Source: Mobula hypostoma
Lineage: Eukaryota
NCBI RefSeq assembly: GCF_963921235.1
Contig: NC_086097.1
Location: 20,896,001 to 20,960,000, forward strand
Direction: 5' to 3'
DNA: 64,000 bases
Made by a program: the position numbers and the translations under genes. Under the pieces are notes generated by a model. It had not been told where the DNA came from. It saw nothing but the letters and a program-made list of their open reading frames with translations, and did not search any database. This document shows positions 460 through 62,125 of the stretch, one piece after another (the stretch's first letter is position 1; each line of letters opens with the position of its first letter).

Positions 460-590
460 ATACAAGAGGTTTTGCAGATGCTGAAAATCCAGAGCAACAC
501 AAAATGCTGGAGGAACTCAGCAGGTCAGGTAGCATCTATGGAGGGGAATATACAGTTAACTTTTCAGTCCGAGACCTTTCATTCGGACTT
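460..590 (-). mobile_element. Penelope-like terminal repeat fragment with degenerate hammerhead
   Basis: tgcagatgctgaaaatccagagcaacacaaaatgctggaggaactcagcagg... shared with about 20 other copies in the window; hammerhead core mutated. Confidence 0.7.
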
Positions 591-662
591 GTATCAGCAA
601 ATTGGGTATACTGATGTTATTTAAGGTTTGGATGGATGTCATGATATATACTGCAATACATT

Positions 663-880
663 AGACCATAAGTCGTAGGAGCAGAATTAGGCTATTCAGC
701 CCATTCAGTCTGCTCCACCATTCCATCACGGCTGATTTATTACCCCTCTCACCCCCATTATCTTGCCTTCCTACCCAAAATGACTACTCAAGATCCTATT
801 AACCCCTGCTTTAAATATACTCAATGACTTGGCTTCCACAGCCATCTGTGGCAATAAATTCCACAGATTCAGCCCACTTT
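663..880 (-). mobile_element. CR1 LINE 3' end
   Basis: agaccataag...ggagcagaattaggc...ttccacagattc is the reverse complement of the CR1 tail (LWNSLP..EAKS) seen elsewhere in the window. Confidence 0.7.
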
Positions 881-1799
881 GGGTACTCAACCCACAGCTC
901 CTCCAGCCATTTATTGATGAGGTACAGCACAGAATAGGTCGCTGGTACTGTAAAGTGTTGTGCTAACCACTATGCTACCATGCCGCCACAAATTTGCTCC
1001 AGGTTCCAGCACAGGTGAGACAGGCAATGTATGACAGAATTAGTTGGTGGTCCAGTAGTTAAGTGACAAGTTCCTTCTGCCTTTTACTTTTCTTCACTTG
1101 ACCCATGTTGTCAGTATAGGAGAGTGGCAACAACGGGATATTGTTGCAAACTGAGGAAACTGGTCATTTGAAGCCAAGGTTCAGTGAAAGTTCTTTCCTC
1201 AGAGTGGCAAATGTATGGAATTCTTCTCCACACACCCCCCCCCCCGCATCTCGCAGATGCAGAAGGGTCTTGGCCCAAAACGTCAACTGTTTAGAAATGA
1301 ATAATGCTGCCTGATCTGCTGATTTCCTCCAGCATTTTGTGCGCGTTGCCCCAGATTATTAGGTTATTTAAGATGGAGATTGATAAATATTTGAAAGGTT
1401 ACAGATTAAGGGCTCTGGGAAACTAGCAGTGAAGTGAGACTAGCACAGATCAGCCATGATTGTATTGAACTTGTAGGTGGCTTGAGGGACCTAGAGGCCC
1501 AACACCTGCTCCAGTTTTCATGTTTGGTCTCAGATTCAGTGGTCATCCAAGATACCACTCCTCTGCAATAGACAAAATGCTGCAGGTACTCATGTCAGGC
1601 AGCACCTATAAAAATGAATAAACAGGCACCAGTTTGGGCTGAGACACTTTAGGACTGCTCCCCTACTACTCTACTTTGAACATTCACAGCCTTTGAATTC
1701 CCAGTATTTGCTGAGGGAGTTAGAGTGGATTTAATCTGGTAACTTTTGCATAAAAACCTAGAATAGCATTCCCTTCAGTGGTCAAGGACAGGAACTATA

Positions 1800-2097
1800 C
1801 TGCAACCTTCCTATACCACCTCCTTCTACTACCCATTGTGCTTTCCCCTTTTCCTTCTTCACCTTTCCTGCCTATCCCCTCCCTGCTTCCCCTCCCCCAC
1901 CCCTTTATCTCTCCCCTTACTGGTTTTTCACCTGGAACCTACCAGCTTTCTCCTTCCCACCCTCCCCCCACCTTCTTTATAGGGCCTCTGCCCCTTCCCT
2001 CTACAGTCCTGACGAAGGGTTCTGGCCTGAAACTTTGACTGATCGTTTCCACGGATGCTGCCCGACCTGCTGAGTTCCTCCAGCGTGTTGTGAGTGT
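1800..2097 (+). mobile_element. Penelope-like 3' fragment (pyrimidine-rich UTR plus terminal repeat with hammerhead motif at 2004-2041)
   Basis: cagtc-CTGACGA-agggttctggcct-GAAAC-ttt-gactg followed by gatgctgcccgacctgctgagttcctccagc. Confidence 0.75.
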
Positions 2098-2235
2098 TAC
2101 CAGTTGAGGGTAATCTGGGCCTTGATGTTTGGCCTGGGAGGGAATGGCAACATTAGTATCCTTGTCCTTACAGAGGAGTGAGAGGATTTTTCAACAATAG
2201 AAGGATTTTGAGTGTCTCTTGAGTTGTGATCTCCG

Positions 2236-2637
2236 TACTTGACGAAGGATATACTGGCTTTGGAGGCAGTGCAGAGGAAGTTAACCTATGAGAGATTGAG
2301 TCGCCTGGGACTATACTCTCTGGAATTCAGAAGAATGAGAAGGGATCTTATAGAAACATGCAAAATTTTGAAAAGGATAGATAAGATCCGTTTATTTTTC
2401 CCCAGAGAGTGGTGAATCTGTGGAATTCTCTGCCCAGGGAAGCAGTTGAGGCTTCTTCATTAAATATATTTACGATACAGTTAGATAGACTTTTACATAG
2501 TAGGGGAATTAAGGGTTATGGGGAAAAGGCAGGTAGATGGAGCTGAGTTTACGGACAGATCAGCCATGATCTTATTGAATGGCGGGGTAGGCTCGATGGG
2601 CCGGATGGCCTACTCCTGCTCCTATTTCTCATGTTAT
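2236..2637 (+). mobile_element. CR1 LINE 3' fragment
   Basis: Degenerate RT C-terminus (EAVQR, RRMRRDLIET, RVVNLWNSLP) and tail cctactcctgctcctatttctcatgtt. Confidence 0.8.
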
Positions 2638-3935: not shown

Positions 3936-4059
3936 AGGCAGCTGAGTAACAATTTGAAATAGACAAGTGGCTAGATAGCATTAGGTTTGGGATGGGCTGT
4001 GAGGGGTAAGACGACTGGCAGCTTATGCTTTAGGTAAGGGAACACAAATTCATATGAAA

Positions 4060-4680
4060 ATAGCACCATAGATTCTGCCTAGGCAGTCTACAGCCCATAT
4101 GGAATGAACACTCAATGTTCCTTTTTTTTCAGGAAACACTATTTTCCTCTCCTAATCCACCTCCACTCTTCCCATTTTTTGCTCCCTTTCCCATCATCCA
4201 CTTACAAATCACTTTCCCCTACCGAATCTATCCACCTATTAACTCACTTCAACTAGATCTCACTCCCCCACATGGTTCGAACTTCTATCACGTTTCTCCC
4301 TTACCAGATTCCAGCAATGAGAGCCTTTCTGTCCCAACTCATCACTCTCTAGCCCGTCTACTTTCACCTCCTCAGCCAGCTCCGTTGGCCGTTATGTATC
4401 CTTGACCGTTTCCGCCCATCACCCACCTGCCTACTGCCCAGTTCCCATCTCCTTCTGTTCATGATCCCTCACAAACCAGCACCCCCCCACCTCCTGGTCC
4501 ACTCATCACCTACAGACCTCCTCCCCCTCTTTATACTGGCCATCTTTCCTCCACTTTCAGTCCTAATACAGATCTCAACCGAAACAATTCTTCCTCATCA
4601 TCTGTGAGGGAGCTGCTTGACCTACTGAGATCCTCCAGCAGTTTACTTCTTTTGCTCTAGGTTCCATATCTGCAGTGTTA
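4060..4680 (+). mobile_element. Old Penelope-like 3' fragment
   Basis: Remnant of GIY-YIG end (ggcagtctacagccc...ggaatgaac), C/T-rich UTR, degenerate terminal repeat. Confidence 0.55.
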
Positions 4681-5084
4681 AACATTTAAAAACAATTTTG
4701 TACGTACTCTACATTGTGACTAAGAGCTGACGACTGTGATGCTTTCAGCAAGTTGTTGCATTTTATATAATTTTGAATAAATTAAATAACTTTGAATAAA
4801 TGAATAAAAAAATCAAGTTTAAAGCTATCTTTACCAGTAGATTTTCACCTTCCATTTAGTCACTGCATTTTAATCAGATAATTCTTTATTCTCTTTACAC
4901 TCACTGATGCACTTCTGGAGTCACACAGGCGCTTCCCCCCCACACACCATGGAACACAAAATTCTAAGCTGAATTCACAATGCAGCACCCAGTTAGTGCT
5001 GAACTCTGGTGGGATTAACATGAGATGTTATACTGCAGTGGAGAGAAAGATCACACAATAATATTTCAAAGGCTATTGGAGAGA

Positions 5085-5215
5085 ACCCTTGTGCCCATGT
5101 CAACACTTACAGGTTAGCACCAAAGACTGTCGCTGTGCAGAAATTAGTGGTTGCATTCCCTGTGTCACAACTGTGATTACACTTCAAAAGTATTTCATTA
5201 GCTGTAAAGGATTTC
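5085..5215 (+). mobile_element. Ancient DeuSINE/L2-tail-like remnant
   Basis: gctgtgcagaaattagtggttgcattccctgtgtcacaactgtgattacacttcaaaagtatttcattagctgtaaag resembles the AmnSINE1/SacSINE1 3' tail as recalled. Confidence 0.45.
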
Positions 5216-6154
5216 AAAATGCCATAGACGTACACCTTCAGAATCCTCTGAAAAGGGAAAAACCAAAGATCCCACTGAAATTTTAGTTCTTACAAACATC
5301 TGACAGAAATGATAATAAAAAGAAAGCTCTGGAATCAAACAAGCATCCGTGGGAAGAGAATCTCAGATGACAAGTCCGATTGAACACCATTTCACAATTC
5401 TAGCATCTGCAGGTCCTTATTCATGCATGTGACATGTGAAATAAGAGCTTCACATCATTAGCAAAATTTATTTGAAGGCTACAAGTATGAACTGTGTGAA
5501 TGGACTGCAAACAAATCAGCCATTAAATTCAAGAGAAAACCCATTAGTCATGAATAACAGCTACAGATATGAACTGCAGTGGAGTAACACAAGCTCAAGC
5601 CAACCTGTTACAGATGACCATAAAATCTGAACGTCTATAGCCCAGTAAGCACGTCACTGAGGTTTGACATCATCCACATAAAAGCCTCCTGGTGATGAGA
5701 AAATATGGCTCCGAATATCATACTTGACAGAGATTTTTGTAGCTTGACTGGTGTACAGAAGTTTAATTACAATGCATTGTAAATTGGGGGTCCAATGGTA
5801 TCAAAGAAAACTCCTCTGCCCACCCACATGAAAAGTTTCAGCCACATTAAAGTTATGGCATGAGAAGGGGATTGGGCCCCAAAGTGGAAATATCCCACTT
5901 CAGGTTCAGAGAGAAACTCAGACTCTGATTAAAGTACAAACTTCAAAACATTCATAAAAGCGTGATTCAACATCTGTTTGTGGATGGGAAGTATAGGCTG
6001 GAACATTTATTTTTAGTCACTTAGTAAAGAGCTTGGGTAGAACTAAATTTGTACCTTTACAGATCTGCTAATGTTGCCTTCAACATTAGGCAAGTCTGCT
6101 TTGCACCTTAACATAGACCTCTTGCTTTCGTCTCCATATTGTGGAGGGCAAGTC

Positions 6155-6990
6155 ACGTCTCACAAACTTGACCAAGTTATTCTGAGGAAGTGACAAAAGA
6201 GCTTGACGGGGGTAAGGCAGTGGACACTGTCTATAGGGATTTTAGTACTAGAGAAGGTCTCTCAAGGTGGGTTGATTCAGAAGATAAAGATGCTTGGGAT
6301 CCAGAGCAAACTGCAAGTTTGGATTCCCAAGGGGCTTTCTCAGAGAGGACAAGGGGTGGAAGGCTGTTATTCTTGCTGGAGGTCTGACCAATAGTGTTTC
6401 ACAAAGATTGATATGGAGACCTCTTACCTCTTGTTTGTGATAGATAGATAGATAGATATCAATTATTTGGATGTAGATGGGTGGATTAACAAGTTTGCAG
6501 AATACACTAAGATTGGGAGTTGTAGACAGTCTAAAGGACAATCAAAGAATATTGCAGCATATAGCTCAGCTACAGACATGAAATGGCAGTTGGAGTTTAA
6601 TTCAGGAAAGTGTGAGGTGTTGCTTATTGGGAAGTCAAATGAAAGAAGAAAGTATCGTTAGATGTACAGAGGAATTTTGAGGTCCAGATCCATAGCTCAC
6701 TGAAACTGGCTATGCAAGTGGATAGGGTGATAAAGACAATATGTGGAATGCTTGCCTTCATTAGTGGGGCTGTTGAGTACAAGAGTAAGGAAATCATGCT
6801 GCAGGTATATAAAACCTTAGACCTCACTTAGGAGTATTGCGTGCAGTTCTGACCACCACTCCATTAGAGTTTTACCATGATGCTGACTGGATTAGAGGGT
6901 ATGAGCTACAAGGTTGGTCAAACTTTGATTTTTCTCCCTAATTTTGCAGGTGAAGTCTAGACCCGATAGAGGTTTTTACCCATGTCAAAC
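6155..6990 (+). mobile_element. CR1 LINE RT fragment (frameshifted), with (GATA)n at about 6438-6458
   Basis: ORF pieces TKELDGGKAVDTVYRDFS, WINKFAEYTKIG, WQLEFNSGKCEVL are RT domain remnants. Confidence 0.85.
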
Positions 6991-8430
6991 TCCAGAGTAC
7001 ATGTTTTTAAAGGGGGGGGGGGAGAAAGAGGTAGCACGAGGGGGGCAAAACCATAGACCATAAGACTTAGGAGCAGAATTAGGCCATTTGCCCATTAAGT
7101 CTGCGCCGCCATTCAATCATGGTCAATCATTTTTTTTTCTTCATCCAAGCTTTTTTTTAAAAATTAAAAAGTGGTAGGTGTCTGGAATAGATTACGAGAG
7201 GTATTACAGGAGTCAGGCAGTTTGGTGGAGGCTTTTAGATAGAGGAACTTAAAAGAATTGAGGGAGTTTGAATGATATACAAGAGATCATTTAGCATATA
7301 TTGGCACAACACTGTGGGTGAATGACATGACCAGTGCTGCACTGTTCTAACATCTGAGTGTCAGAGGGGGACTTGGCCAATCTGATGGTGAGGAGGAACG
7401 AGCTAATACATTTATTTTTATGAACTAATGCAGTTATACATTGTCACTTTTCACTGGATAAGTAAGTAAAATACATTGATTTCAGCTTCAGAAGTTGATT
7501 GCTGCCATACATGTGATACAACTGCAGCCCCAAAACCTACTCTTGGAATGGCAGGTAAAGGCCTTTATCTTGCTGCTACCCTTTTTGAAAGGCTTGTGTT
7601 GAAATCAAACAGCCCAAGAGCAATGCCTCACATCTTAACTGTTTAGTGTCAGAGTCAGTTCACAGACCTCTTCATGTGAAGTTGGTCTTAAATTCAACAG
7701 TACTGGAGAAGCCCTGGAACAAAGCAAAGTCCTTTATTTTATCTCAAGTAAGGTGGGCAGTGCTCAGTATAAAGCATTGGGTGGAACATTTCCTTGCTCT
7801 TCAATTGGTTTCTTTGCCTTCACACACAACCCATGAGATACTGTCAACTCTTAGTGAAATATAAAACAGACCTGTTGCTTAATTCCATGTTCCAAAACAT
7901 TGATGACAAATTGTGCACTACATCATACTGAACAGCAGGAACTACATCTCAGAAAACAGCAATTCATTATTGTATATATAAAATTGGGATTGAAGGCATG
8001 ATGCTATAAATGATATCCCTCCAGTTAAACAATCCTTTCAACGCCGAAGTTGTAGAATAATTAGCTCTATACTGCAGTGCCACACTTGGTCACCGAGCCA
8101 AGTTTTTTTGTCTAGAATGTGCAAATGAGTTCAGACCTAGGCTACTCCTCCAGGGAATAGTTTTCTTTTGTGGGTAACAAGCTGTAACACAACCTTGATT
8201 TTTAGGCATTTGGTGGAGGAGGGGAATAGAGGAAGATTGCATCCCAGAATGTTCATAGGTACATATAACCATAACAATTACAGCACGGAAACAGGCCATC
8301 TCAGCCCTTCTAGTCCATGCTGAACGCTTACTCTCACCTAGTCCCACTGACCTGCACTCAGCCCATAACCCTCCATTCCTTTCCTGTCCATATACCTATC
8401 AGATAATTTATTAAAAAGTACAAGAGAAAG

Positions 8431-8655
8431 ATGAGCCAGCTGGTAGCGTAGCGGCATCAGCGCCAGACTTCGGAGCGAAGTCTCCCGAGTTCGAACCCAG
8501 CCGGCTCCCGTGCACGCTCTCCATCCATGCCTGGTTGAGCATCGAGCTAGCAACTCGACCTCGTAAAAAACAAATTACCTGCTACAGAAACATCAACAGC
8601 AAAAAGCTGATGGCCTATGCTCTCTCATGAGTTTAAAAGGCAATTTCCTTTTTTC
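8431..8655 (+). mobile_element. tRNA-derived SINE with RTE-like internal motif, 10-bp TSD
   Basis: A-box-like tggtagcgtagcgg, B-box gagttcgaacc; TSD caagagaaag at 8421-8430 and 8656-8665. Confidence 0.8.
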
Positions 8656-8779
8656 CAAGAGAAAGGTAGTTGATCCTAGCTTTATATGGGGCTTTATTTT
8701 ATGAGACTCTCAGCTTCTTAATTTTCTGGAATCACTATTTTTAATACGTAAAGTGCATTTCCTTAGCCTGTTATGGAAA

Positions 8780-9145
8780 CCCCTCCCCCATCATCCAGGC
8801 CATGCTCTCTTCTTGCTTCTGCAATTAGGAAGGAGGTACATGAACCCAAGGTCCTACGCTACCAAGGTCAATAACAGTTATTACAATTCAACCATCAGGT
8901 TCGCGAAGCATTGAGTCCACAACTCACTTTCAAGGACTCTACAATTCATGTTCTCAATACTATTTACATTTTTTTTACATATGTTTTTGTATTTGCACTG
9001 TTCTATTTTGCATATTGGTTGTTTGTGTGCAGTTTCCCATTGATTTTATCGTATTTCTTTGTTCTATGAATGCCCACAAGAAAATGAATCTCAAAGCAGC
9101 ATATGGTGACGTATACAGTTTGATAATAAATTTACTTTCAACTTG
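8780..9145 (+). mobile_element. Rex1/Babar-type LINE 3' fragment
   Basis: ccatcatccaggccatgctctcttc...ggaaggaggtac (HPGHALF..GRRY) and tail gataataaatttactttcaacttg. Confidence 0.65.
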
Positions 9146-9696: not shown

Positions 9697-9888
9697 GGTA
9701 AACACGAGGAATTCTGCAGATGCTGGAAATTCAAGCAACACACATCAAAGTTGCTGGTGAATGCAGCAGGCCGGGCAACATCTCTAGGAAGAGGTACAGT
9801 CGACGTTTCAGGCCGAGACCTCGACTGTACCTCTTCCTAGAGATGTTGCCTGGCCTGCTGCATTCACTAGCAACTTTGATGTGTGTTG
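9697..9888 (-). mobile_element. Fold-back Penelope-like insertion, 68-bp inverted arms, 10-bp TSD
   Basis: Arms 9736-9803 and 9821-9888 (2 mismatches); TSD tgtaaataag at 9687-9696 and 9889-9898. Confidence 0.88.
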
Positions 9889-10019
9889 TGTAAATAAGTG
9901 AGCAATACACAAAAAAAAGTCTAGGTTGTGTCGTAAGCAGCAATACAGGGGAACCTCACCTGCGAACACAGATCAACATTCATGAAATTAAAGGATGTAA
10001 TCAACCTTAAAAGTATATT

Positions 10020-10520
10020 ATCATTTCCATTCCAACATGTTGGTCCATGGCCTTCTCTTGTGCCAAGATGGGGCCACCCTTGGGGCAGAGGAGCAACACC
10101 TTATATTTTGTCTGGGTAGCCTCCAACCTGATAGCATGAATATCAATTTCCTCTTCTGGTAAAAAGATATCCACCACCTCTTCCCTCTTCCTCAATTCCC
10201 CACTCTGGCCGTTTACCTCTTCTCACCTATCACTCCCCCCGGGTCCCCTCCTCCTTCCCTTTCTCCTATCCTATGGTCCAATCTCCTCTATCTTCTCCTA
10301 TCCTATGGTCCACTCTCCTCTATCTTCTCCAGCCCTTTACTTTTTCCACCCAGCTGGCTTCACCCATCATCTTCTAGCCTACTTCCTTCCTCTCCCTTGA
10401 TATTTTTATTCTGGCATCCTTTCCAGTCCCGAAGAAGGGGCACGGTCTGAAATGTTGACTGTTTATTCGTTCTGTAGATGTTGCCTGACCTGCTGAGCTC
10501 CTCCAGCATTTTGTGTGCTC
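10020..10520 (+). mobile_element. Penelope-like 3' fragment: GIY-YIG C-terminus, UTR with 32-bp tandem duplication (10261-10324), terminal repeat
   Basis: 10052 onward reads LLLCQDGATLGAEEQHLIFCLGSLQPDSMNINF; degenerate hammerhead at about 10424-10461. Confidence 0.8.
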
Positions 10521-13311: not shown

Positions 13312-14530
13312 CAGCTGTCAGAATGTCAGGAGGCTGAAGGAGTGATAGATAGGACAGAAAGATAGTTACACCCAAGATGCAGGACACAGGAAACTGGGTG
13401 ACAAGCAGGAAGGGGAATGGGTTAAGGAGCCAGTGCAGAGTACCCCTGTGATCATCTGCCTCATCAGCAAGTATATCACTTTGGATACTGCCTTGGGGGG
13501 CGGGGGGGGGGGGTGGTGGAGAGAAGAGGATGACCTAACATAGGAAAGTCACAGTCGTCAGGTCTCTGGCACTGAGTCTGCCTCTGTGACTCAGACGGGA
13601 AGGGGGAAGAAGAGGCACACTGCGGTGATAGGGGATTCATTAGTTTGGGGGAAAGAACAGGAAGTTCTGTGGGTAAGAATGAGATTACCAAATGGTATGC
13701 TGCATCCCAGGTGCTAGGTTCCTGGATATCTCTAACTGAGTCCTCAGCATCCTTAAGTGGGAGGGTGAACAGCCAGAAGTTGTGGTCCATGTAGGTACCA
13801 ATGACATGGGTAGGATGAGTGACCAGGTTCTGCATAGGGAGTTTAATTCAGGGAGTTAGGTGCCAAGTTAAAGGTCAGGGCCTCTTGGGACTGCTACCCA
13901 TGCCACGTGCTAGTGAGGCTAGAGCTGGGAAGATTATACAGTTTAATATGTGGCTAAGGAGTTGGTGTAGGAGGGAGGGCATAGGATTTTTGGATCATTG
14001 GGCTCTCTTCCAGTGAAGGTGGGACCTGTATAGAAGAGACTGGAGGGTGACTAATATCCTAGCGAGAAGGTTTGTTAATGCTACACAGTGGGGTTTAAAC
14101 TAGAGGAGTTGCAGCAGATGGGAACCAGAGTGCCAGTACAGTTAGGGGAGAGGTTGTGGGGATAGATGTTGTTAAGATCTCAAAGTTAGGAGGTTGAGCA
14201 CGGTGCGTCAAAATCGAAGTGGGTGAATACAGAACCGAAGGTATTGTATCTGAATGTGCACAGTATACAGATGAACTTGCAGCACAGTTGCAGATCGGCA
14301 GGTATGATGTCATGTCACTGAGTCATGGCTGAAAGATTGTAGCTGGGAGCTTAATGTCCAAGGAAACACATTGAATCAAAAGGATAGGCAGGAAGGCAGA
14401 GGGGGTGACGTTGCTCTGTTGGTAAAAGAAATGAAATCAAATCATTAGAAAAAGGTGTCATAGGGTCAGAAGATGTTCAATCATCATCGATAGAGCAAAG
14501 GAACTGCAAGAGTAAAAAGACCTTGATACC
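13312..14530 (+). mobile_element. CR1 LINE 5' part: ORF1 SGNH-esterase and start of ORF2 APE endonuclease (disrupted)
   Basis: VIGDS, VVHVGTNDMG, NMWLRSWCRREGIGFLDHW; then LYLNVHS, TESWL, GGDVALLV. Confidence 0.8.
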
Positions 14531-14539
14531 AGTCTAAGA

Positions 14540-15278
14540 ATAATGGGGGCTGCCTGAATGACTATCGCCCGGTAGCACTCACATCTACAGTGATGAAATG
14601 CTTTGAGAGGATGGTCATGACTAGACTGAACTCCTGTCTCAGCAAGGACCTGGACCCATTGCAATTTGCCTATCGCCACAATAGGTCAACAGCAGATGCA
14701 ATCTCAATGGCTCTTCACACAGCTTTAGATCACCTAGACAACACAAACCCCTATGTTAGGATGCTGTTCTTTGACTATAGCTTAGCATTTAATACCATCA
14801 TTCCCACAATCCTGATTGAGAAGTTGCAGAACCTGGGCCTATATACCTCCCCTTGCAATTGGATCAAGACAGTGGCTATACTTTATTAGGAGTTTGAAGA
14901 GATTTGGTATGTCAACAAATACACTCAAAAACTTCTATTGTTGTACTGTGAAGAGGATTCTGACAAGCTACTCACTGTCTGGTATGGAGGGGCTACTGTA
15001 CAGGACCGAAAGAAGCTGCAGAGAATTGTAAATCTAGTCTGCTCCACCTTGGGTACTAGCCTACAAAGTACCCAGGACATCTTCAGGGAGCGGTGTCTCA
15101 GAAAGGCAGCGTCCATTATTAAGGACCTCCAGCACACAGGACATGCACTTTTCTCACTGTTACCATCAGGTAGGAGGTACAGAAGTCTGAAGGCACACAC
15201 TCAACGATTCAAGAACAGCTTCTTCCCCTCTGTTATCCGATTCCTAAATGGACATTGAAGCTTTGGACACTACCTCAC
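14540..15278 (+). mobile_element. Rex1/Babar LINE fragment, internally deleted
   Basis: [39 protein letters not shown] and ..GRRYRSLKAHTQRFKNSFFPSVIRFLN. Confidence 0.85.
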
Positions 15279-15365: not shown

Positions 15366-16530
15366 ACAATAGACAATAGGTGCAGGAGTAGGCCATTCAG
15401 CCCCTCAAGCCAGCACCACCATTCACTGTGATCATGGCTGATCATCCACAATCAGTATCCAGTTCCTACCTTATCCCCATAACCTTTGATTCCGCTATTT
15501 CTAAGAGCTCTACTGCTTTCTTGAAAGCATCCAGAGACTTGGCCTCCACTGCCTTCTGAGGCAGAGCATTCCACATATCCACCACTCTCTGGGTGAAAAA
15601 GTTTTTCCTCAACTCCATTCTATATGGCCTACCCCTTACTCTTAAACTGTGGCCTCTAGTTCTGGACTCACCCATCAGTGGGAACATGCTTCCTGCCTCC
15701 AGCGTGTCCAATCCCTTAATAATCTTACATGTTTCAATAAGATCCCCTCTCATCCTTCTAAATTCCAGTGTCTACAAGCCCAGTTGCTCCAATCTTTCAA
15801 CATATGACAGTCCTGCCATCCCGAGAATTAACCTTGTGAACCTACGCTGCACTCCCTCAATAGCAAGAATGTCCTTCCTCAAATTTGGAGACCAAAACTG
15901 CACACAATACTCCAAGTGTGGTCTCACCAGGGCCCTCTACAGCTGCAGAAGGACCTCTTTGCTCCTATACTCAATCCCCTTGTTATGAAGGCCACCATGC
16001 CATTAGCTTTCTTCACTGCCTGCTGTACCTGCATGCTTGCTTTCAGTGACTGATTAACAAGAACACCTAGATCTCGTTGTACTTCCCCTTTCCCTAACTT
16101 GACTCCATTTAGATAATAATCTGCCTTCCTGTTCTTACCAAAGTGGATAACCTCACATTTATCTACATTAAGCTGCATCTGCCATGCATCTGCCCACTCA
16201 CCCAGCCTGTCCAAGTCACCCTGCATTCTCATAACATCCTCCTCACATTTCACACTGCCACCCAGCTTTGTGTCATCTGCAAATTTGCTAAGGTTACTTT
16301 TAATCCCTTCATCTAAATCATTAATATATATTGTAAACAGCTGTGGTCCCAGCACTGAACCCTGCAGTACCCCACTGGTCACCACCTGCCATTCCGAAAG
16401 GGACCCGTTAATCGCTACTGTTTCCTGACAGCCAGCTAATTTTCAATCCATGTCAGTACTCTGCCCCCAATACCATGTGCCCTAATTTTGCCCACTAATC
16501 TCCTATGTGGGACTTTATCAAAGGCTTTCT
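15366..16530 (-). mobile_element. CR1 LINE 3' about 1.15 kb (RT domain, few frameshifts)
   Basis: VTSGVLQGSVLGPQLFTIYINDLDE..KFADDTKLGG and MRGDLIET..WNALP; tail acaatagacaataggtgcagg on plus strand. Confidence 0.92.
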
Positions 16531-24541: not shown

Positions 24542-24546
24542 CAGTT

Positions 24547-42713: not shown

Positions 42714-43414
42714 GCCACTGCATCACTGTGCCCTCAAGACAGACACACACTAAGTAAACTGAACTAGATTTCAGCTTTGGCTGCTTTGTGGATCACTGCT
42801 CCCACCTAGTGGATTCAGGACATTGCATCTTTTGGTATATTCCAAGTCTCAGTTGGAAAGGTACTTGGCTAGGTGAGAAACGCAACTTGCAGCGTTGAAT
42901 TGGTTTGAAAATTACACAGACAATAATTATGCCTATGTCAAATTAGACTGCTTGAGAAAAAATTCATGGTAAGCCCTCTACATACCCAGTGTTTTTTTTA
43001 GTATTTAAAAATACAACATGATGCAATTCCACCCTTAAATTTCAAGTTTTGCACATCAGTATCAACATTTACAGCAGCCCTACTCCAATAACTTTAAAAT
43101 CCATTAACTATGTGGCATGACTTGTGTGATGAAGTAGAGAGGATTTCTGGGGTCAGTTTCCATTAAAATAAATAGCACGTTTATCACTTGTGGTACACAT
43201 TAGTCTGATTTAAATGTCCTCACGAGAAAAAAAGCAGTAAATTTACTCAAGTTAATTAATTCTCAATTACAAAATTATGAATTTAAATTAGGTGCTTTGT
43301 TTTAGAGTCCAAGGCTTTACAGCAAGCAACTTGTAATAGTATTTTCAGTGATTGCCAGGAGGTGGCGATAATAAGCAGCTACAGGCTGCCTTCTAACAAC
43401 TACAGTTCCATTGA

Positions 43415-43708
43415 ACACTTCACCAGTGAGTGGTGTTGGGGACCGCTGATCTACTGTATGCAATGCACTTCGTACAGCCTTCTCTACATCAGTGAGACTT
43501 GACATTGCAGGACTGCTTTGTTCAGCACCTCTGCTTTGCCCACAACAAGCAGGATTTCCCAGTGGCCAAATATTTTCATTCCAATCCTCATTCCTACATG
43601 TTGGCCCATTGGCCTCCTCCACTGCAACAATGTGAGGGATGGAAGAGCAACACCTCATTCCACCTGGATAGCTTTCAAACTGATGGCATGAACACAAATT
43701 TCTCCAGC
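43415..43708 (+). mobile_element. Penelope-like GIY-YIG endonuclease pseudogenic fragment
   Basis: LIYCMQCTSYSLLYISET* then DCFVQHL..PVAKYFHS..FHLDSFQTDGMNTNFS. Confidence 0.8.
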
Positions 43709-43709
43709 T

Positions 43710-46151: not shown

Positions 46152-47212
46152 GCTAACTTCCACTACTTTCAGATGGATACAAGAAAATTTCCAAGTCAGT
46201 GAACATCCCTTGGAGTACAGTGAAGTCAATCATCAAGAGATGGAAAAATACGGCTCAGCTGTAAATCTGCCTAGAGCAGGCCATCCTCAAAAACTGAGTG
46301 ACTGTGCAAGAAGGGGACTACTGAGGGAGGCCATCAAGAGACCCATGACACTCTGGAGGAGTTGCAAGCTTCAGTGGCTGTGAAGAGAGAGACTGTGCAT
46401 TCAACTGTTGACCTGGTGCTGGAAGAGGGTTCTACAGTCTGATGAAACCAAAATTGAGCTCTATGGCCATTAGACTAAATGCCATGTTTAACGCAAGCCA
46501 AACACCACACATCAAAAACACACCATCCCTACCATCAAGCATAGTGGTGGCTGCATCACGCGATGGGGATGCTTCACTGCAGCAGGCCCTGGGAGGCTTG
46601 TGAAAGTAGAGGGTAAAATGAATGCAGCAAGATACATGGAAATCCTAGTGGAAAACCTGATGCAGTCTGCAAAAGAATTGTGATTTGGGAGAAAATTTGT
46701 TTTCCAGCAAGACAATGACCCTAAGCACAAAGCCAAAGCTACACAGGAATGGCTTAAAAACAACAAAGTTAATGTCCTGGAGTGGCCAAGTCAGAGTCAA
46801 GACCTCAGTCCAATTGACAATTCGTGGCTGGACTTGAAAAGGGCTGTTCACTCACGACCCTCATGCAATCTGACAGAGCTTGAGCAGTTTTGTAAAGAAT
46901 GGGGAAAAATTGCAGTGTCCAGATGTGCAAAGCTGATAGAGACCTATCCACACAGACTCAAGGCTGTAATTGCTGCCAAAAGTGCATCTACTAAACACTG
47001 ACTTGGAGGTGAGTGAGTAAGCAATGAATTATTTTTTGTTTAATAATTGTAATAAATTTAGACTAATTTGTAGTAATTTGTTTTCACTTTTGACACGGAA
47101 GAGGCTTTTCTGTTGATCAGTCAAAAAAGCCAAATTAAATCCACTGATTCAGTATTGTAAAACAATACAACATGAAAACTTTCAAGGGGGAGAATACTTT
47201 TTATAGGCACTG
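46152..47212 (+). mobile_element. Tc1/mariner transposon, 5'-truncated, transposase pseudogene
   Basis: NLPRAGHPQKLSD, SDETKIEL, WGCFTAAGPGRLVKVEGKMNAARY, FQQDNDPKH, WPSQSQDLSPI; right terminus ...ataggcactg. Confidence 0.9.
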
Positions 47213-47509
47213 CATACTGTTCCAAACTAACCCAATGCAACAAAGAATACAACGTAATATTTAGACTTGTTACATTTGACATTCAATTCAACAATTACAG
47301 ATAAGCAGCCTTTCCTGTTCGCATCAGAACTGAGCAGCTCTGATGGGAAATTATTGACCTGAAACATCAATCATTTTTCTCTGCAAAAGCCACTTGGCTT
47401 GAGTGTTTCCTGCATTACTTTTACTCCAGCTCTCCAGCATCTGCAGTTTGCCTTTCATCTGGATTAAGAACAGCAAAATATATTGCTTCTAATGCAATAT
47501 ATACCACTT

Positions 47510-48135: not shown

Positions 48136-48355
48136 CTTTTTGCCACCTATGTATCCACCAGCTGCACCGAAGCTCTTGGTGAAAGTTCCCATCATGACAT
48201 CCACATCCTTGGGGTTCAGATCAAAATATTCAACCACACCACGGCCTGTGGGTCCTAGAGCCCCGATGCTGTGAGCTTCATCCAGGTAAAGATAGGCTTT
48301 GTATTTTTTCTTTAAAGCTACTATCTCAGGCAAGCGGACAATGGAGCCTTCCATA
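48136..48355 (-). CDS. SPTLC2: SPTLC2 internal coding exon (human exon 8 equivalent), 220 nt, contains PLP-binding lysine
   Basis: cacag|T ATG GAA...AAA AAG|gtacaa; [77 protein letters not shown] and GTFTKSFG motifs of alpha-oxoamine synthases (Lys codon 48175-48177); residues favour SPTLC2 over SPTLC3. Confidence 0.96.
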
Positions 48356-48834
48356 CTGTGAACAAGAAAGGCAGATTTGCACTTAACATTGTTAACGAGT
48401 CCCAGTCATCACTAACTTAACCCATCTCAACTCGCATAGAGTCCTGTTAATTCAAAGACCAAAATTTTATTAACTTGATAAACAAACTGTTTATTTTGTT
48501 CTCGTTATGGCTTTTGTCAATTATTAACACAACCAGTCACAAACTTTCAAGACAATTTCCAAATTACAGTACACTAGCCTCTGACATTGTCACTGAAAGT
48601 AGTGCTCTCATTTTATTGCACTGTAATGATTCCTTTTACACTGCACCTTGCCAGACCTGCAGATACAGCACTGCTCATTAGGTTCTGTCCATGGCACAGA
48701 GTCAAGCTGCCTTGATTTTTTGCAATCTTTCCTCATCCTTAAGCTTAAACAAAAACAATCACTGTACATCACTCTCAGGTCCCTGCATTTCATGGCGCTA
48801 ACTTGGGCTATTAGCAACAGTGTCAAGTCAAGAA

Positions 48835-51630: not shown

Positions 51631-52345
51631 ATCAAGTTAACAATTTACTTTGCCCTGAGCATTCAGTCCATTAAGTGAGGGTACTACAGGCCCATCTAGT
51701 CTGCAATGAACTATTATTTTGCCTCATTTTATCGACCAGCACCTGGACAATGGCTGTCCATACCCCTTCCAACCACATACTTATCCAAACCTCTCAAACG
51801 CTGCAATCAAAGTCAATGCAGACTTTCAAAACAATTGCATTCCTCAATTTACATTCTTTAGCAATCAACTTGCTGGTTGCCCTACGACACACCTACACAA
51901 TGGGGGAAATTTATAATAGCCAATTAACCTACCAACCAGCATATTTTTGGGGCTATAACAGGAAACTGGAACAACTTTGGAGAAAACAGATGGTCACAGG
52001 GAGAAGGTTCAAACACCACACAGACTATACCAGAGGTCAGTACTGAACATAGATGCTGGTGCTATTCTGCCAACTTGTATTGAACCATAAAAGCACTGGT
52101 TAAGTAACAGCATTTTATTCAATTTTAGGCTTGGATAGGGATAGCCAAGTAAAAATGTGGAAACATTTAAAATGGCTTCAGGTACCAGTCATTTAAGATA
52201 CCAGACTAAACTGGAAAAAGCAGGTGGTTGCCTTTGGTTCAAAATATGTTTGCGAGTAGAAGTATGCATCCAATGCATGGTAGAAGTATACTCCCATCAC
52301 AAGGACCAAAAGATTCAACAAACGCAAGAGCAGGCAAGATTGAGG

Positions 52346-52477
52346 AACACACACTAAATGCTGGAGGAACTCAGCAGACCACTTTTTCTAGCCCATAGAT
52401 GCTGCCTGGCGTGCTGAGTTCCTCCAGCATTTCGTGTGTTGCTTGGATCTCCAGCATCTGCAGACTTTCTCTTGTTT
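52346..52477 (+). mobile_element. Fold-back Penelope-like insertion lacking the hammerhead
   Basis: aacac..aaatgctggaggaactcagca is inverted against tgctgagttcctccagcattt..gtgtt; possible short TSD gattgag. Confidence 0.75.
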
Positions 52478-53070
52478 GTGAAGATGATTGAGAATCTTTC
52501 TAAAACTCAATATACTGTTATGACCAGGATTTTGCTGCCTGAGAAGATGGCAAAAATTACGGTCTTCAATAGGCAAATGGATCAGCTCTAAGAGGAAAGT
52601 AAAATTCAGGGAGAAGACAGGGAATGGGAGAAAACAATAGGTGTCAAATTAGCTTGGATTTGATAGGCATTTTCTGTGCCATTATGATTCGACAATATTC
52701 TTGTGCTAAGTGATTCACAAGTGTATTTCAACTTTCTGTTCCTTGAGCACACAATCTAAAAACCCACAAACAACTTGAACACTGACAGTGGCATATTCTG
52801 ATCCTAATTGAAATAAGAGACCGTCTTATAAAGGTTACTTTGATTAGGTAACCTAAATACATTGAATAAAGTGCTGCTCAGCGGTACACAGCATATACCT
52901 CAGGATGTAACATGCTGACTTGACACCACATTCTAATTATTAGAAACTCCCCAGTCAGTCCAAAGCACTGTTTCCATGATAATGCAGATGGGTTACTTAG
53001 TAAGTTTGTAGATGACAAATGGCTAAGTTATGGGTAGTAGGGAAGTTATCAAAGGAAACAGTAGGATCTA

Positions 53071-53845: not shown

Positions 53846-55115
53846 CAGATCAGTTGGAAATCCGGGCAGATAGAGTGTGAGGTGTTATAGTTTGGGAGGT
53901 CAAAGCAAGACGAAAAGCAGTAGTAAATCGCAAGACCCTTAGAAGTATTAATGAACAGAGGGATCTTGGTGTCCAAGACCATAAACTCACTGAAAGAGGT
54001 AGCACAAGTGGATGCAAGGGTAAAAGCAAAAGTAGGCAAATGAATTGGACTGTTTGCTTTAAGTAGAGTTTGGACAAATTGCGATCATTTCCTCTGGAGA
54101 GTCATGGTGACATTACATTAACTTTTGATACATTTTTAAAGGTACATAGCCGAGTCTTGCCCCCCCACCCTGGGCATGGAGGTATGTGAGGGAAAAGTGG
54201 TGTTTTCTTTTATACAAGGAACACATGCTAGCAATGGTGGTAGAAGCAGCTATGATAGTAATGATGATTAAGAGTCATCCAAGTTGACATGAACAGGCAA
54301 GGAATAGAGGGATAGAGACACATGGAGGCAGATGAAATTATTAGATTAGCATCAGGCTCAATGCAGACACTGGTGGGGTGAAGGGCCTGTCTGTGCTGAA
54401 CAGTTCTAGGTTCTAAATGGCTACACTGCTTGGCTAAACTATTTGCTACATGTAAAGTTTCAGGATGATTGAGATGCAATGAGGAGCTACGTTATCAGTT
54501 CAGATTTGGAAACATGATCGGTTTAGTTTTGTCTTTATGAAATATGTATGTCAACATAATGATGAGCTGCTGCGGTATCGGTTGTCTGCCAAGTTCCAGT
54601 TTCACCAGCATATGTCAGTTCAACAGCAGCATTACAAATTAACAGCCAGACTGCCAAATGCATTGAATACACACAGAATATTTCTGCACTGATAAAACTT
54701 GAGGCTCATGTTACAAAACAACTTACTTCCCGAATGTCATTTCAGAAAGGTTTTAGGAAGGTGTTGAGGTAAGCAAAATACAGCTGAAATTTTTCTTTTA
54801 AACAAACGTTTACCAAATTAAATAATTAGCCTTTATCTGCTATGTACAACTCTCAGTTGTTTCAGTCACGAGGAAAGAATTGCTTGTTCATATTACCAGA
54901 ATGAAGCTGGTGAATAGGAAACCACAGAGAATAGATGAAGCTATTTCTAGATAGAAAAACAATTATTGCTGACAAATTTCAGAGAAGTCCACTTTTAAGA
55001 CCAAGCAATACAGAGAAATTGGAATGCAGTTTAATCAGGACAGAATTGGTAGTTAATTAGTTTAGTGTAAATTAAAGAGGTGCATGGGAGAGAAGATTAG
55101 TCTGGTATGATGCAT

Positions 55116-55251
55116 AAACACAAGAGATTCTGCAGATGCTGAAAATCCAGAGTAACACACACAAAATTCCAGAGGAACTCAGAAGGTCAGACAATGTTTA
55201 CGGAGTGGAATAAAGAGCCGATGTTTCGGGCTGAGACTCCTTTGTCAGGAC
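55116..55251 (-). mobile_element. Penelope-like terminal repeat, hammerhead G8 mutated
   Basis: Minus strand gtc-CTGACAA-aggagtctcagccc-GAAAC-atc. Confidence 0.75.
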
Positions 55252-56625: not shown

Positions 56626-56731
56626 CTGTAAATCCCCTCCACTACAATGAGAATCTTTTTCCATGGTCGGCGTGTTCGCGGCTGCCCGTGCACAATTGCG
56701 TCTTTAAGCAATTTATCCAAGCTCTGCATAT
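56626..56731 (-). CDS. SPTLC2: SPTLC2 internal coding exon (equivalent to human exon 7), 106 nt
   Basis: Minus strand tattttcag|AT ATG CAG...TAC AG|gtacaa; translates [35 protein letters not shown](S), near-identical to LCB2/SPTLC2; phase 1 in, phase 2 out, joins next exon in frame. Confidence 0.95.
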
Positions 56732-57155
56732 CTGAAAATAATACAAGCATTGTAATGATGACTACCCAGTTGGCAGTAAACAAACATCTATTAAACAAGT
56801 TTGCATTTCCAGTCAATACCAGCTGGTGGATATCCAAAAGAAAAATGTCATCGTTACCTCACAACGTTCAGAATAAATTTCATGAGAATTGAATCACTAC
56901 ACATTCAAACTCAGTGGGTAAATCCATTTAGCCCACTCAGAAGGAATCTACATAATTCGTGGCAGCTTTCTTTAATGATGTTCCACACTCACTGTCATAT
57001 CCAGAAGTTGATTAAAAGTAAATCTCTATTTCCCCACAACTATTGCAGTAGGATCAAATGAACATTTCTAAACTGACTTCAAGTTACTAGATAAGGACAT
57101 CTAGGGTCATGTAACTTAGGTGAGTAAGTGGGCATGAGGCACACACACACACACG

Positions 57156-58465: not shown

Positions 58466-59627
58466 TGTACAATATTTGATCTGGCTTGGAGATTTATTCA
58501 ATTTTAAGCTTAGACATCTAATCCTTAACGTACAAAGAAAATGCAGGAAATAATCAGGTGGGTTAGGCAAATCTTTGTAGTTAATATTTCAGCTTGATGA
58601 TCTCTTATCACACTCCTTTAGTATTTCCTGTTCTACAATGTCTATCCTTTCAATATGGCATGTAGTTTGTCTAAATACATCAATATCTTTCCCTATATAG
58701 CCACCAAATATTATGAACATTCATCAACCTCTACACATTTATCAAGCTTTCACTGTTTTAATGTCACCCTATATTTTCTACATTAAGCTTTCTGTAGTAT
58801 TAAGCTCGGAGAACTGATGCGTCATGCTAATTAGTCAATAATACAAAGTCTTCACATCAAACGGATCAGGATAAATCTAAAAGGAAGATGGTTTTTGTTT
58901 TCGTTCTATAACCTTTGCTGCCTTGTATGCAAATCAATTGGCTCAAAAGGTTACAGGTTTCTTTCCCATGGGTGCTGTCTAAACTGCTACACATTTTCAC
59001 CATTTCAGATTTCTTCCATATACAGTATTTTGCTTTAGCCAGTTATACATTTGACTGGAACTGGAAGAATGATTTTGGAGAGGACTCTCTCAACCAGGAA
59101 TTGGAAGGGAAGATGAAGCGCAAAAAGGGAATAAGGCAAAGATTTAATTATTTTATCACCATGTCCCTGTATTCAATAGTCATCATTTTCTGCACTGAAC
59201 TTTCCTGATTTTGCATAATAAATTTTCCAATTTGCAATTTTCCATTTGAGGACGTGTCACACAGTCTGATGCAACAAACTGATTAGTTCCTAGCTTTCTC
59301 AGAGGAAAACAGATGCATAGCCACTCATCTGAGCAAGCTTATGTACACCTTTTGCTTCCTTTAAGAGTAACAGTGGAAGGGGGCTTGATTGTTTCTAGTT
59401 GTATTGCTATACCACTGGAGGGATGCAATGTGGAGACCCAAGCAATAATGGGCATCGATAAAAAAAGAAAATCAGGAAAAGGTAGTATTTGGCAGTTTGG
59501 AAATATTGAAGCTACATCCCAGAAATGGGATTATGTGGCCTGCACACAGAACCTGGATGCACCAAAGCTGTTTACCAAATTATTTGATCAATTAAACCTG
59601 CTAAAGAATTCATGCATCGAGGTGTCA

Positions 59628-59885
59628 TGGGAGCACAGTGGTTAGCACAATGCTTTACAGTACTAGTGACCCAAGTTCAATCCCCACCACTGCCTACAAG
59701 GAGAATGTACATTCTCCCCATGACCACATGGGTTTCCTCCGGGTGCTCCAGTTTCCTCCCGCAGTCCAAAGATGTACCAGTTGGTAGATTAATTGATCAC
59801 TGTTAATTGTCCCGTGATTAGGCTCGGGTTAAAACCGGATTGCTGGGCAGCACGGCCAGAAGGGCCTACTCCACACTGTATCTCA
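59628..59885 (+). mobile_element. V-SINE (HE1-like)
   Basis: gcacagtggttagc..gttcaatccc..tgggtttcctccgggtgctccagtttcctcccgcagtccaaaga. Confidence 0.85.
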
Positions 59886-60117
59886 ATCAATAACTCAATA
59901 CAGGACATCATAAATATTTTAACAAACTCAAATTCTACACAATATTTAGTTGAAAAATTCCAATTAAAATGTGTTGCATGTTTACATTTACATTATACAA
60001 GGACGCGCATGTAATTAAAAAGGGACTGTAAATATTCAGGCCAATCATTGTTACTTTGGGGATCCATTTCATCCCAACCAATTTGAACTTGAGAGCTACA
60101 CATCACAATTCAGACAC

Positions 60118-60241
60118 AAACACAAGAGATGCTACAGATACCGGAAACACACAAAAGGCTGGAGGAATTCAGTAGGTCGGGCAGCATCTATGGAGGGGGA
60201 ATAAACAGATGATATTTCTGGCCAAGACACTTCATCAGGTC
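60118..60241 (-). mobile_element. Penelope-like terminal repeat with hammerhead core
   Basis: Minus strand gac-CTGATGA-agtgtcttggcca-GAAAT-atc; helix I disrupted. Confidence 0.75.
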
Positions 60242-61264
60242 ATTATTTAAGATTCAAGATTGTTTAATGTCATTTCCACTATACGAGTGTAAAAGGAGAA
60301 CAAAATAATTGAATCAACGTGACTCAGTACTGTTTAAGCCAAAGTGGTAAATAGAAAATCAAAAGAATTTTTATCAATATGTTATCTTTCACAACACATC
60401 ATGTCTTCAAAACATATTGCTATCAGTGTAGGAGCTTTGCAATGTGAAGCATCCAATTTGCCCGTAGCAAGATCCTGAACACGATAATCTGTCTTGTAGA
60501 TGATTGAAAGATAATTATCAACCTAAACACCATGAGCACTTGAAGGCGAGAAAACATACATAAACAATATATTCCAACTCTTACATTCCTTAGCTGGATG
60601 AAAGAGTCCAAGAATACATTTTGTTTAGAGCACAAAGTGAAGCACTGCAAGGATGAAGGATTGCTATTCTAATTCTAATTTGAATGAAATCAATGCCAAA
60701 TTGGTAACAGTTCTGCTCTGTGAACTTTCATGCAAGGGAAACAATGATTTATTTCAAGAACTGCACCTACTGCAAATTAACCATTTTTATCCAAGATCAG
60801 TTCTAGAGTTGAAGAGCACTTGTCGCCCTCAACTGATTTTAAATGTTGTATTTAAACCGTCAAGCAATATTGCAGACCGATGCTATACGGGCTCAATTTA
60901 ATGCTGGTATCTGTTACACAAGGGCAAATTGACATTTGCAAGCAATTTTAGCAATCAGGGCGCAAATCAAAGCTGATGAATTCCAGTCAGCACTAACACA
61001 TTGAAATGTGTAATTGGAGAGTCAGTAAGTGTTGGCCCAAAACATTGACCCTCCATATAGATACTGCCTAATGTGCTGAGTTCCTCCAGTATTTTGTTAA
61101 ACTACAGACTGTGCAGGTTTCCTAAATCCATTGAGTATGCCATCAATTTGTGGAGCAGTTATTTCATTTTTCTTTGCAATCACCATTTGCTAGCAAAGGT
61201 CAGTGAATAGCTTCGGGCCACATCTTCTGCAAAAGACAGGATCATATCCACAGAAGGAATAATA

Positions 61265-61620
61265 TGGATCAACTATTCCAAGCAAAATTGAAATTTGAAA
61301 GATGTATCAGTATTACAGTGGAGTAAAGGCAACTACAGGGGCTTGTGAGAAGAGATGGCCGAAGTTTTTTTGGAAGGGAATACAAGCAATGATGACTGCA
61401 GAGCAACAAAATCTGGAGTTTCTGGGAGCAATTCAGAAGGCACAGAATAGATGCATCCCAAAGATTAAGTAGCATTCTAAAGGGAGGATGAGGTAACCGT
61501 AGCAGACAAGGGAAGTCAAAAGCAGCATAAGCACAAAAAAAAAGAGGGCATATAATGTAGGAAAAATTAGTGGGAAGCAAGAAGATGGGGATGGTTTTAA
61601 AAACCAGCAGAAGCCAACAG
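61265..61620 (+). mobile_element. CR1 LINE ORF2 internal fragment
   Basis: aaaggcaactacaggggcttgtgagaagagatggcc..gcacagaatagatgcatcccaaag resembles the CR1 endonuclease-RT linker. Confidence 0.6.
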
Positions 61621-61954
61621 AAGTAACCTCATCAGTAATTTAAAAAAAGAGGATTCTCCATCTGATTTCTGCTTTGACTTAGACCTCTTACACTATTCTA
61701 ATGAAGTCCATAAAAAGCTCAAAGAACGCGTCATGAATTTGGCCTATTACAGCTCAGGCCATAACATGGAACTCTGGACAGATGACCTTTCCAACCTGCA
61801 TCAGAACTGGAAAGTCATCTTGCAATGTTAACTGTTACTCTTCCCATAGACAATGACTGACCTGGATGAACATATCCAGCATTTCTTTTTGCCATCTCAC
61901 TTCCAACATTTACAACTTATATTTTGCAAAAGCATCTTGGAATCCATTACTTAC

Positions 61955-62125
61955 CAGAGTAACACACAAAATGCTATCTGACCTCCTGAATTCCTCCAGC
62001 ATCTATAGCAAGGAATAAACAGTTGACATTTCAGGCTGAGACCCTTTATCAGAACTGGAAAGGAAGTGGGTAGAAGCCAGAAGACCAAGGAATGTGGACT
62101 ACAGGAAGGGGAAGTTGAGAGGACC
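61955..62125 (-). mobile_element. Penelope-like terminal repeat with hammerhead variant (62020-62057)
   Basis: Minus strand cagtt-CTGATAA-agggtctcagcct-GAAAT-gtc-aactg. Confidence 0.7.

Follow-up and report, generated by a model that had tools for sequence, protein, structure and literature searches.

Minimal hammerhead ribozymes in the pseudo-long terminal repeats (pLTRs) of metazoan Penelope-like elements (PLEs; Cervera and de la Pena 2014, PMC4209133) are the closest described counterparts of the dispersed repeat analyzed here, which recurs across a 64-kb window of the Mobula hypostoma genome (assembly GCF_963921235.1, contig NC_086097.1, positions 20,896,001 to 20,960,000 of the forward strand) containing exons of SPTLC2. 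The ray repeat shares with the published motifs the CUGANGA box, an extra nucleotide before helix II, a helix II initiated by G, the GAAA box, a palindromic 15.2/16.2 pair without loop 3, the GUC cut site, and a 5-bp helix I; the published motifs are likewise mostly single, dispersed, and tied to truncated PLEs, and pairs on opposite strands are reported there too. However, no cartilaginous fish stands among the species of Table S1 and Fig. S3 of that work, and while it gives 4,000–9,000 intact motifs per coelacanth or frog genome, the density here looks far higher, although the counts are not like for like.

Endonuclease-bearing PLEs of the Neptune clade (Craig et al. 2021, PMC8557442; Arkhipova et al. 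2013, PMC3846280) provide a second comparison. Strong 5′ truncation, an inverted 5′-truncated partner, an optional 30–40-bp tail on one end, target-site duplications (TSDs) of about 8–10 bp or of variable length, solo pLTRs, and a GIY-YIG endonuclease at the C-terminus are common to both, as is the CX2-5CxxC linker, which is found in the ray relatives P0013 and P0016; the window differs in holding no full-length copy, and in that many of its insertions span only 130–200 bp. PAc, the green anole Poseidon element (Frangieh et al. 2024, PMC11167929), also has its hammerhead about 90–120 nt upstream of two alternative, tail-defining 3′ ends and, with an internal start of reverse transcription and a protein-assisted hammerhead that is dispensable for insertion in vitro, is the source of the mechanism proposed below, but as a Poseidon element it lacks the linker present in the ray relatives. 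Non-LTR retrozymes (Li, Clavereau and Pollet, bioRxiv 10.64898/2026.07.22.740005) are likewise non-coding, hammerhead-bearing, and PLE-derived, with one chondrichthyan among their hosts, but are defined by head-to-tail tandem units. Finally, abundant intronic PLEs have been described in another cartilaginous fish, the whale shark (bioRxiv 10.1101/443036), although the passages on that expansion leave hammerheads unmentioned. Both hammerheads in PLEs and an expansion of PLEs in shark introns have already been published; no description of this ray family's hammerhead was found in the literature, with Repbase and Dfam outside the search and the supplementary tables of the retrozyme preprint possibly holding one.

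We consider it very likely that the copies in the window are 3′-end fragments of a recently mobile PLE family, likely of Neptune type, whose minimal hammerhead probably matters only in the RNA of the parent element and has decayed in almost every copy. The repeat itself is a PLE 3′ end, made up of a pLTR and an optional tail of about 36–39 bp. This origin, which a sequence-only reading of the window had proposed, is supported by a link to GIY-YIG C-termini, inverted 5′ arms, the optional tail, TSDs, and an empty orthologous site. The endonuclease link is seen in the following features:

10013–10512, plus strand: PLE 3′ fragment with GIY-YIG C-terminus (10013–10159), pyrimidine-rich 3′ untranslated region (3′UTR), decayed hammerhead, and short end (protein and DNA matches)
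37149–37553, plus strand: PLE 3′ fragment with endonuclease end, 3′UTR, and decayed hammerhead (DNA E = 1.5e-6, protein profile 12.8 bits)
4061–4675, plus strand: older PLE 3′ fragment with a weak endonuclease-end remnant (E = 0.079), 3′UTR, decayed hammerhead, and tail
43353–43727, plus strand: frameshifted GIY-YIG endonuclease remnant (tblastn E = 4.8e-7, DNA E = 5e-12)

Four GIY-YIG remnants had been proposed, of which the one at 10020 is strong and the one at 43415 confirmed, while the match at 37160 (37149–37260) is moderate and that at 4060 (4061–4154) weak; the repeat profile detects no terminal repeat behind the 43353–43727 remnant. An exhaustive protein search with the 53-residue frame at 10001–10159 matches 23 proteins (a word-indexed search with the same remnant gave no match), and among the 10 that were looked up, the nine with a named source all come from ray, skate, or whale shark. 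One of them, P0013, carries the reverse transcriptase (RT) motif YIDD, a CX4CxxC linker, and the endonuclease motif, shares the endonuclease C-terminus with the window remnant at 62–69% identity, and is about 45% identical to proteins of 730–960 residues with RVT_1 and GIY-YIG domains; another, P0016, reaches the Pfam GIY-YIG profile at E = 0.0021, short of the curated cutoff. The CX2-5CxxC linker of P0013 and P0016, which the window remnants do not retain, favors Neptune or Nematis over Poseidon (PMC8557442), and only Neptune and Poseidon are reported from vertebrates (bioRxiv 10.64898/2026.07.22.740005); taken together, a Neptune-type clade is likely. The same endonuclease C-terminus also turns up in isoforms predicted for unrelated genes of rays or skates (P0014, P0015, P0018, and P0034; ATP synthase C3, Gemin8, RecQ5, and neuromedin-U receptor 1), through either exonization or gene-model artifacts. 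The pyrimidine-rich 3′UTR stands directly before helix I in 5 of the 19 hammerhead-bearing copies, and among the loose ends that lie upstream of the hammerhead in contigs of three DNA runs it is also the most frequent (agreement 0.42–0.43), as ordinary 5′ truncation of longer PLEs predicts.

The anatomy of the insertions is clearest at five loci (9.8, 24.5, 30.8, 39.9, and 52.3 kb) where two copies form a head-to-head inverted pair:

24407–24605, unstranded: young 199-bp inverted PLE-end insertion with a 5-nt spacer, 61/62 arm match, and a 13-bp TSD (24394–24406 / 24606–24618)
9697–9888, unstranded: young inverted pair of 192 bp with a 39-bp tail on the left arm only, the CUGANGA box gone by 5′ truncation, 66/68 arm match, and a 10-bp TSD
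39921–40079, unstranded: inverted pair of 159 bp, the tailed right arm beginning inside CUGANGA, with a 15-bp TSD
52345–52480, unstranded: inverted pair without a hammerhead, a tail of about 39 bp on the right arm, and 27/28 arm match
30843–30971, unstranded: old, decayed inverted pair (profile)

In the 24.5-kb pair, the left (minus-strand) arm comprises an intact hammerhead and a tail, and the right (plus-strand) arm an intact hammerhead that is then cut short; the 9697–9888 pair belongs to the same subfamily, with 8 differences in 121 nt. Within pairs, the tail is present on one arm only, and the 3′ ends fall into two groups, about 60–76 and 98–106 nt behind the cut site. The loose ends of contigs show a fixed tail end at 24406–24407, a further end at 24442–24443, and a major subfamily that has the same hammerhead and diverges right after helix I. 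The exact TSDs of 10, 13, and 15 bp that flank three of the pairs compare with a null maximum of 10 bp, reached in 1 of 300 trials. We note that a CCAGCA motif lies about 13–24 nt before both 3′ ends (at +48 and +78 relative to the cut site in the profile), and this duplicated motif is a candidate recognition site for RT initiation. On the strand of the host gene, the two young pairs (24407–24605 and 9697–9888) form near-perfect double-stranded hairpins of 62–68 bp, which are likely substrates for A-to-I editing or for small-RNA production.

Recent movement of the family follows from the 24.5-kb locus, where two related organisms lack the inverted pair at the orthologous site. When contigs of four runs were aligned to 24150–24870, single-copy contigs of X1, possibly the source of the window, were found to cross both junctions of the 24407–24605 insertion. 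In X5 (organism B), by contrast, 24393 is directly followed by 24606 in record 16, which leaves out the 199-bp insertion and one 13-bp duplication, confirming the 13-bp TSD, and differs at 5 letters in about 510 of flanking sequence. Record 9 of X11 (organism C) also lacks the insertion, which is therefore either younger than a very recent split or polymorphic.

In the majority sequence of the repeat, helix I is followed by CUGANGA, a single additional A, helix II (4 bp, capped by a tetraloop), GAAA, the palindrome ACGU with no loop 3, the GUC cut site, and helix I once more. This order agrees with the published consensus and PLE examples (PMC4209133 supplement) and supports a minimal type I hammerhead for the majority sequence. 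The picture changes when copies are taken singly. Among 28 of the 30 placements of the repeat profile (those at 30883, minus strand, and 31121, plus strand, were left out), the core is free of mismatches in two, carries one mismatch in two (the 2004 and 39945 copies), and has at least two mismatches or lacks the region in the remaining 24, so the statement that most copies carry the hammerhead motif was too strong. The strict pattern CUGANGA-N10-16-GAAACGUH occurs twice in the window against 0.01 expected (CTGANGA on its own is not enriched, 38 against 41.1 expected), and both intact cores belong to the single 24407–24605 insertion:

24510–24537, minus strand: intact core of a minimal hammerhead in SPTLC2 sense orientation, with cutting predicted after 24510 (core scoring and strict motif)
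24551–24578, plus strand: intact core of a minimal hammerhead in SPTLC2 antisense orientation, with cutting predicted after 24578 (core scoring and strict motif)

Helix III in these intact copies is the palindromic minimum A15.1-C15.2-G16.2-U16.1. In a set of 20 copies (5 of 25 rows were dropped as twin arms, truncated, or marginal), C15.2 and G16.2 are each retained in 10, and the four CpG positions around the cut site each in only 9–11, while CpG changes at cut-site positions amount to 8–10% in X1 contigs. Over the same 20 copies, the mismatch rate is 44/202 at core positions against 227/1031 downstream (p = 1.0), with 32/102 mismatches in CUGANGA, a figure inflated by 5′ truncation, against 12/100 in GAAA plus U16.1. 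Since the core decays as its flanks do, the inserted copies decay neutrally, driven by CpG, and selective conservation of the CUGANGA/GAAA core in genomic copies is rejected. A low change rate at C7/G8 was also rejected as a sign of selection; these positions lie near the alignable end, and counts were truncated. Between parent lineages, constraint is weakly visible, in that the young subfamily differs from the old majority at 6 of 39 hammerhead columns (four of them from one alignment gap) against 23 of 66 downstream columns (p = 0.04). Helices I and II have 82.8% of their cells paired in 16 copies, against 14–44% when slid, with 138 of 500 shuffles as high. An Rfam scan of the window gave no hammerhead family match and three hairpin matches below gathering score (one to a microRNA family, two to plastid families), and the exact degenerate hammerhead pattern had no match in either viral or metagenome contigs.

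Alongside the anatomy, the TSDs, the one empty site, and the neutral decay observed here, we propose a series of insertion steps by analogy with the anole Poseidon element. A protein with RT and GIY-YIG domains would nick the target DNA, and reverse transcription would begin inside the RNA at one of two sites, about 60–76 or 98–106 nt behind the ribozyme cut site, yielding a short or a tailed end, respectively. Synthesis would then mostly halt in the hammerhead or at its outer edge, at times adding an inverted second arm, and a staggered second nick may create the 10–15-bp TSD.

The profile that defines the family was built by iterated nhmmer, seeded with the copy at 2004 and with the reversed window as a control, and it gives 30 placements in the window against none in the control. 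Every one of the 19 main positions named in the sequence-only reading is matched (the weakest at 47354–47415, E = 0.014), and self-BLAST of the window recovered the short repeat at the places listed there. Its four older copies fared unevenly: those at 30810 (30876–30952, E = 9e-11) and 61780 (61803–61894, E = 1e-11) stand, that at 31120 is marginal (31177–31239, E = 0.045), and that at 58530 is detected by neither profile, its likeness to the repeat being by eye only. With inverted arms merged, about 23 insertion loci remain, or one per 2.8 kb, which bears out the very high copy number claimed (about one per 3 kb). Contigs matched at 85% likeness number 90,457 in X1, 54,410 in X5, and 24,004 in X11, with depth concentrated on the repeat, and show that the repeat family is huge; the summed contig depth over the repeat, about 10^5-fold above the flanks, is not a copy number. 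The copies that lie outside the inverted pairs and endonuclease-linked fragments are as follows:

460–590, minus strand: short copy from helix I, tailed, core decayed (profile)
1259–1357, plus strand: short decayed copy without tail (profile)
1569–1657, minus strand: short decayed copy without tail (profile)
1856–2100, plus strand: 3′UTR and hammerhead with one core mismatch, short end (profile)
22361–22470, plus strand: short decayed copy (profile)
27676–27793, minus strand: short decayed copy, tailed (profile)
29807–29933, plus strand: short decayed copy, tailed (profile)
31177–31239, plus strand: marginal old copy (profile, E = 0.045)
47354–47454, plus strand: old decayed copy, tailed (profile, E = 6e-6)
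55114–55251, minus strand: short decayed copy, tailed (profile)
58945–59005, plus strand: weak old copy, absent from the earlier list (profile, E = 0.0023)
60116–60239, minus strand: short decayed copy, tailed (profile)
61032–61097, plus strand: short decayed copy (profile)
61803–61894, plus strand: old decayed copy (profile, E = 1e-11)
61955–62100, minus strand: 3′UTR end and decayed hammerhead, about 20 bp inverted internally (profile)

The inversion in the last of these, at 61970–62002, sits between short inverted repeats of the repeat's own (ATGCTG / CAGCA-like) and gives rise to an additional plus-strand profile match. Two sets of neighbors lie tail to tail, namely 1259–1357 (plus) and 1569–1657 (minus), about 210 bp apart, and 61803–61894 (plus) and 61955–62100 (minus), about 60 bp apart.

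Several observations weigh against reading these copies as 3′-end fragments of a hammerhead-bearing PLE. The pile-up of 5′ ends at the edge of the hammerhead, discussed below, is unexplained by random truncation. On the RNA side, helix covariation in 16 copies is not above shuffles (its score was reached by 48 of 500), RNAalifold gives no consensus structure for the repeat, and the contrast between hammerhead and downstream columns fails to reach significance in a third subfamily's two copies (p = 0.12 and 0.64). TSDs exceed the null at only 3 of the 19 loci tested, the other 16 having at most 7 bp, and the boundaries of those three loci were set after the repeats had been seen. Within the window, no RT remnant was found (25 full-length queries matched endonuclease pieces only), nor was a full-length element or an upstream pLTR, and the clade assignment rests on the linker motif, not on a tree.

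The 5′ boundary of the copies remains odd. The 3′UTR is missing upstream of 14 of the 19 hammerhead-bearing copies (one of them borderline), nine placements begin at the outer edge of helix I (−28 to −36 from the cut site), and the interval between −36 and −180 contains no start among the 28. The 5′-end profile was partly trained on copies cut near the edge of helix I, so that exact positions lean that way, although a separate test of the upstream 32 nt is independent of that profile. Ends at the cut site itself were rejected as a pattern, with only two of the 28 placements near it: by eye, the 9.8-kb pair's right arm starts 2 nt upstream, and the old right arm at 30.8 kb starts at +1. Two causes come into question for the boundary: the fold may halt reverse transcription or make it double back, or the copies may descend from a short master that is non-autonomous. 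For the former, it is conceivable, if rather unlikely, that the hammerhead fold and not its cleavage sets the boundary, with RT stalling or folding back at helix I. Ribozyme and tail would then act as a cassette of about 135 nt that sets its own limits, has multiplied in batoid genomes like a short interspersed element (SINE) until its copy number became very high, and remains mobile; self-priming at inverted junctions is an earlier proposal (PMC3846280). If true, PLE hammerheads would gain a structural role in transposition, with a natural data set for testing it.

For the latter, most copies would come from a dedicated mini-element that is non-autonomous, consists of hammerhead and tail (about 135 nt), has its transcription start at the outer edge of helix I, and is mobilized in trans by a PLE. 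The missing 3′UTRs and the clustered starts speak for this, as does the fact that both arms of the 24.5-kb pair begin at the same nucleotide, and putatively non-autonomous PLEs are known in Chlamys (PMC8557442). However, the 5′ ends still spread from −36 to +35, the same subfamilies are also found with 3′UTR and endonuclease upstream, the 3′UTR remains the commonest upstream loose end in the three DNA runs, though at the modest agreement given above, and neither a tRNA gene scan nor B-box-like matches identified an internal promoter. We therefore regard such a mini-element as a doubtful source of most copies, on a par with the fold-set boundary, and the dedicated non-autonomous family of the sequence-only reading as unproven.

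Spread as a non-LTR retrozyme, in which tandem hammerhead repeats move via circular RNA, is far less probable than either, even though PLE-pLTR-derived retrozymes with dispersed monomer derivatives are reported in one chondrichthyan (bioRxiv 10.64898/2026.07.22.740005). The window contains no tandem array (0 of 6 tandem-repeat rows involve the hammerhead unit), paired copies are inverted rather than head to tail, 5′ ends do not lie at the cut site, and the 3′ ends are the short and tail ends of a PLE and do not coincide with a cut site.

We give marginally less credence still to the idea that the intact intronic hammerheads function as ribozymes, either cleaving SPTLC2 pre-mRNA or liberating small or circular RNAs. 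Two perfect cores do lie within 24510–24578, one of them on the strand of the gene, and minimal hammerheads cleave weakly as dimers (PMC4209133). However, the two cores face opposite ways, leaving one per transcript, and that one is predicted to be buried: the minus-strand transcript of the 24.5-kb locus folds into a single 62-bp hairpin (predicted −149.8 kcal mol–1, z = −18.6), in which the computed pair probability of helices I and II is 0.0. The intact unit alone is also predicted to prefer an off-pathway fold, and the active dimer, at −12.9 kcal mol–1, lies 21 above the cofold minimum of −33.9 kcal mol–1, in a nearest-neighbor model that ignores tertiary contacts. This poor predicted active fold is in line with the low activity described for minimal hammerheads (PMC4209133) and with findings on the anole element, whose hammerhead needs its protein, whose cleavage is dispensable for insertion, and for which no reads ended at the cut site (PMC11167929). 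In addition, the 24.5-kb insertion is missing in two relatives, and 11 placements are sense and 19 antisense to SPTLC2, which is no bias (p = 0.20). The contigs of X9, a run presumed to be RNA, gave no pile of molecule ends, although contigs do not bear on expression or cleavage. Because the sole intact sense copy is predicted to lie inside the 62-bp hairpin, cleavage of SPTLC2 pre-mRNA is not expected.

That the repeat is an ordinary tRNA-derived SINE resembling a hammerhead by chance is almost certainly wrong, since, although it is short, dispersed, very high in copy number, and TSD-flanked, with no Rfam hammerhead match, the window holds no tRNA genes, none of 16 B-box-like matches falls within a copy, no copy has a poly(A) end, the repeat is directly linked to the GIY-YIG C-terminus, and there are two full motifs against 0.01 expected; the endonuclease–3′UTR–hammerhead continuity already largely refutes it, in support of the earlier view that this is not an ordinary SINE.

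The host gene is represented by three exons:

56628–56735, minus strand: SPTLC2-like exon (profile, AG/GT ends)
48136–48363, minus strand: SPTLC2 exon matching residues 317–392 of serine palmitoyltransferase 2 chains 7k0i_B / 6m4n_B (E = 7e-42, AG/GT ends)
40540–40665, minus strand: SPTLC2-like exon (profile, AG/GT ends)

No further SPTLC2 exon was found in 1–40500 or above 56760 with a profile of distant homologues, and the 40 kb beyond the third exon may be either a very long intron or a stretch with an exon that this profile missed. The placement of the repeats throughout SPTLC2 introns thus holds for copies within 40.5–56.7 kb, and outside this span, where no further exon was found, an intronic position is inferred. 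The window also contains remnants of the long interspersed element type, with RVT_1 matches and an endonuclease/exonuclease/phosphatase match, at 14527–14889 (plus), 15924–16442 (minus), and 45283–45708 (minus), and Tc1/mariner-type transposase remnants at 46684–47001 (plus) and 63063–63485 (plus), with DDE_3, HTH_Tnp_Tc3_2, and HTH_SB matches.

For SPTLC2, the copies described here are relics that probably do nothing to the gene. For annotators, the short repeat is to be read as a PLE end and not as a tRNA-derived SINE, and the catalogue of PLE minimal hammerheads is extended to a cartilaginous-fish family that was mobile very recently. The role of the PLE hammerhead has been called unclear (PMC8557442), and its cleavage was dispensable in vitro in the anole element (PMC11167929); a family as abundant as this one could test that role statistically.

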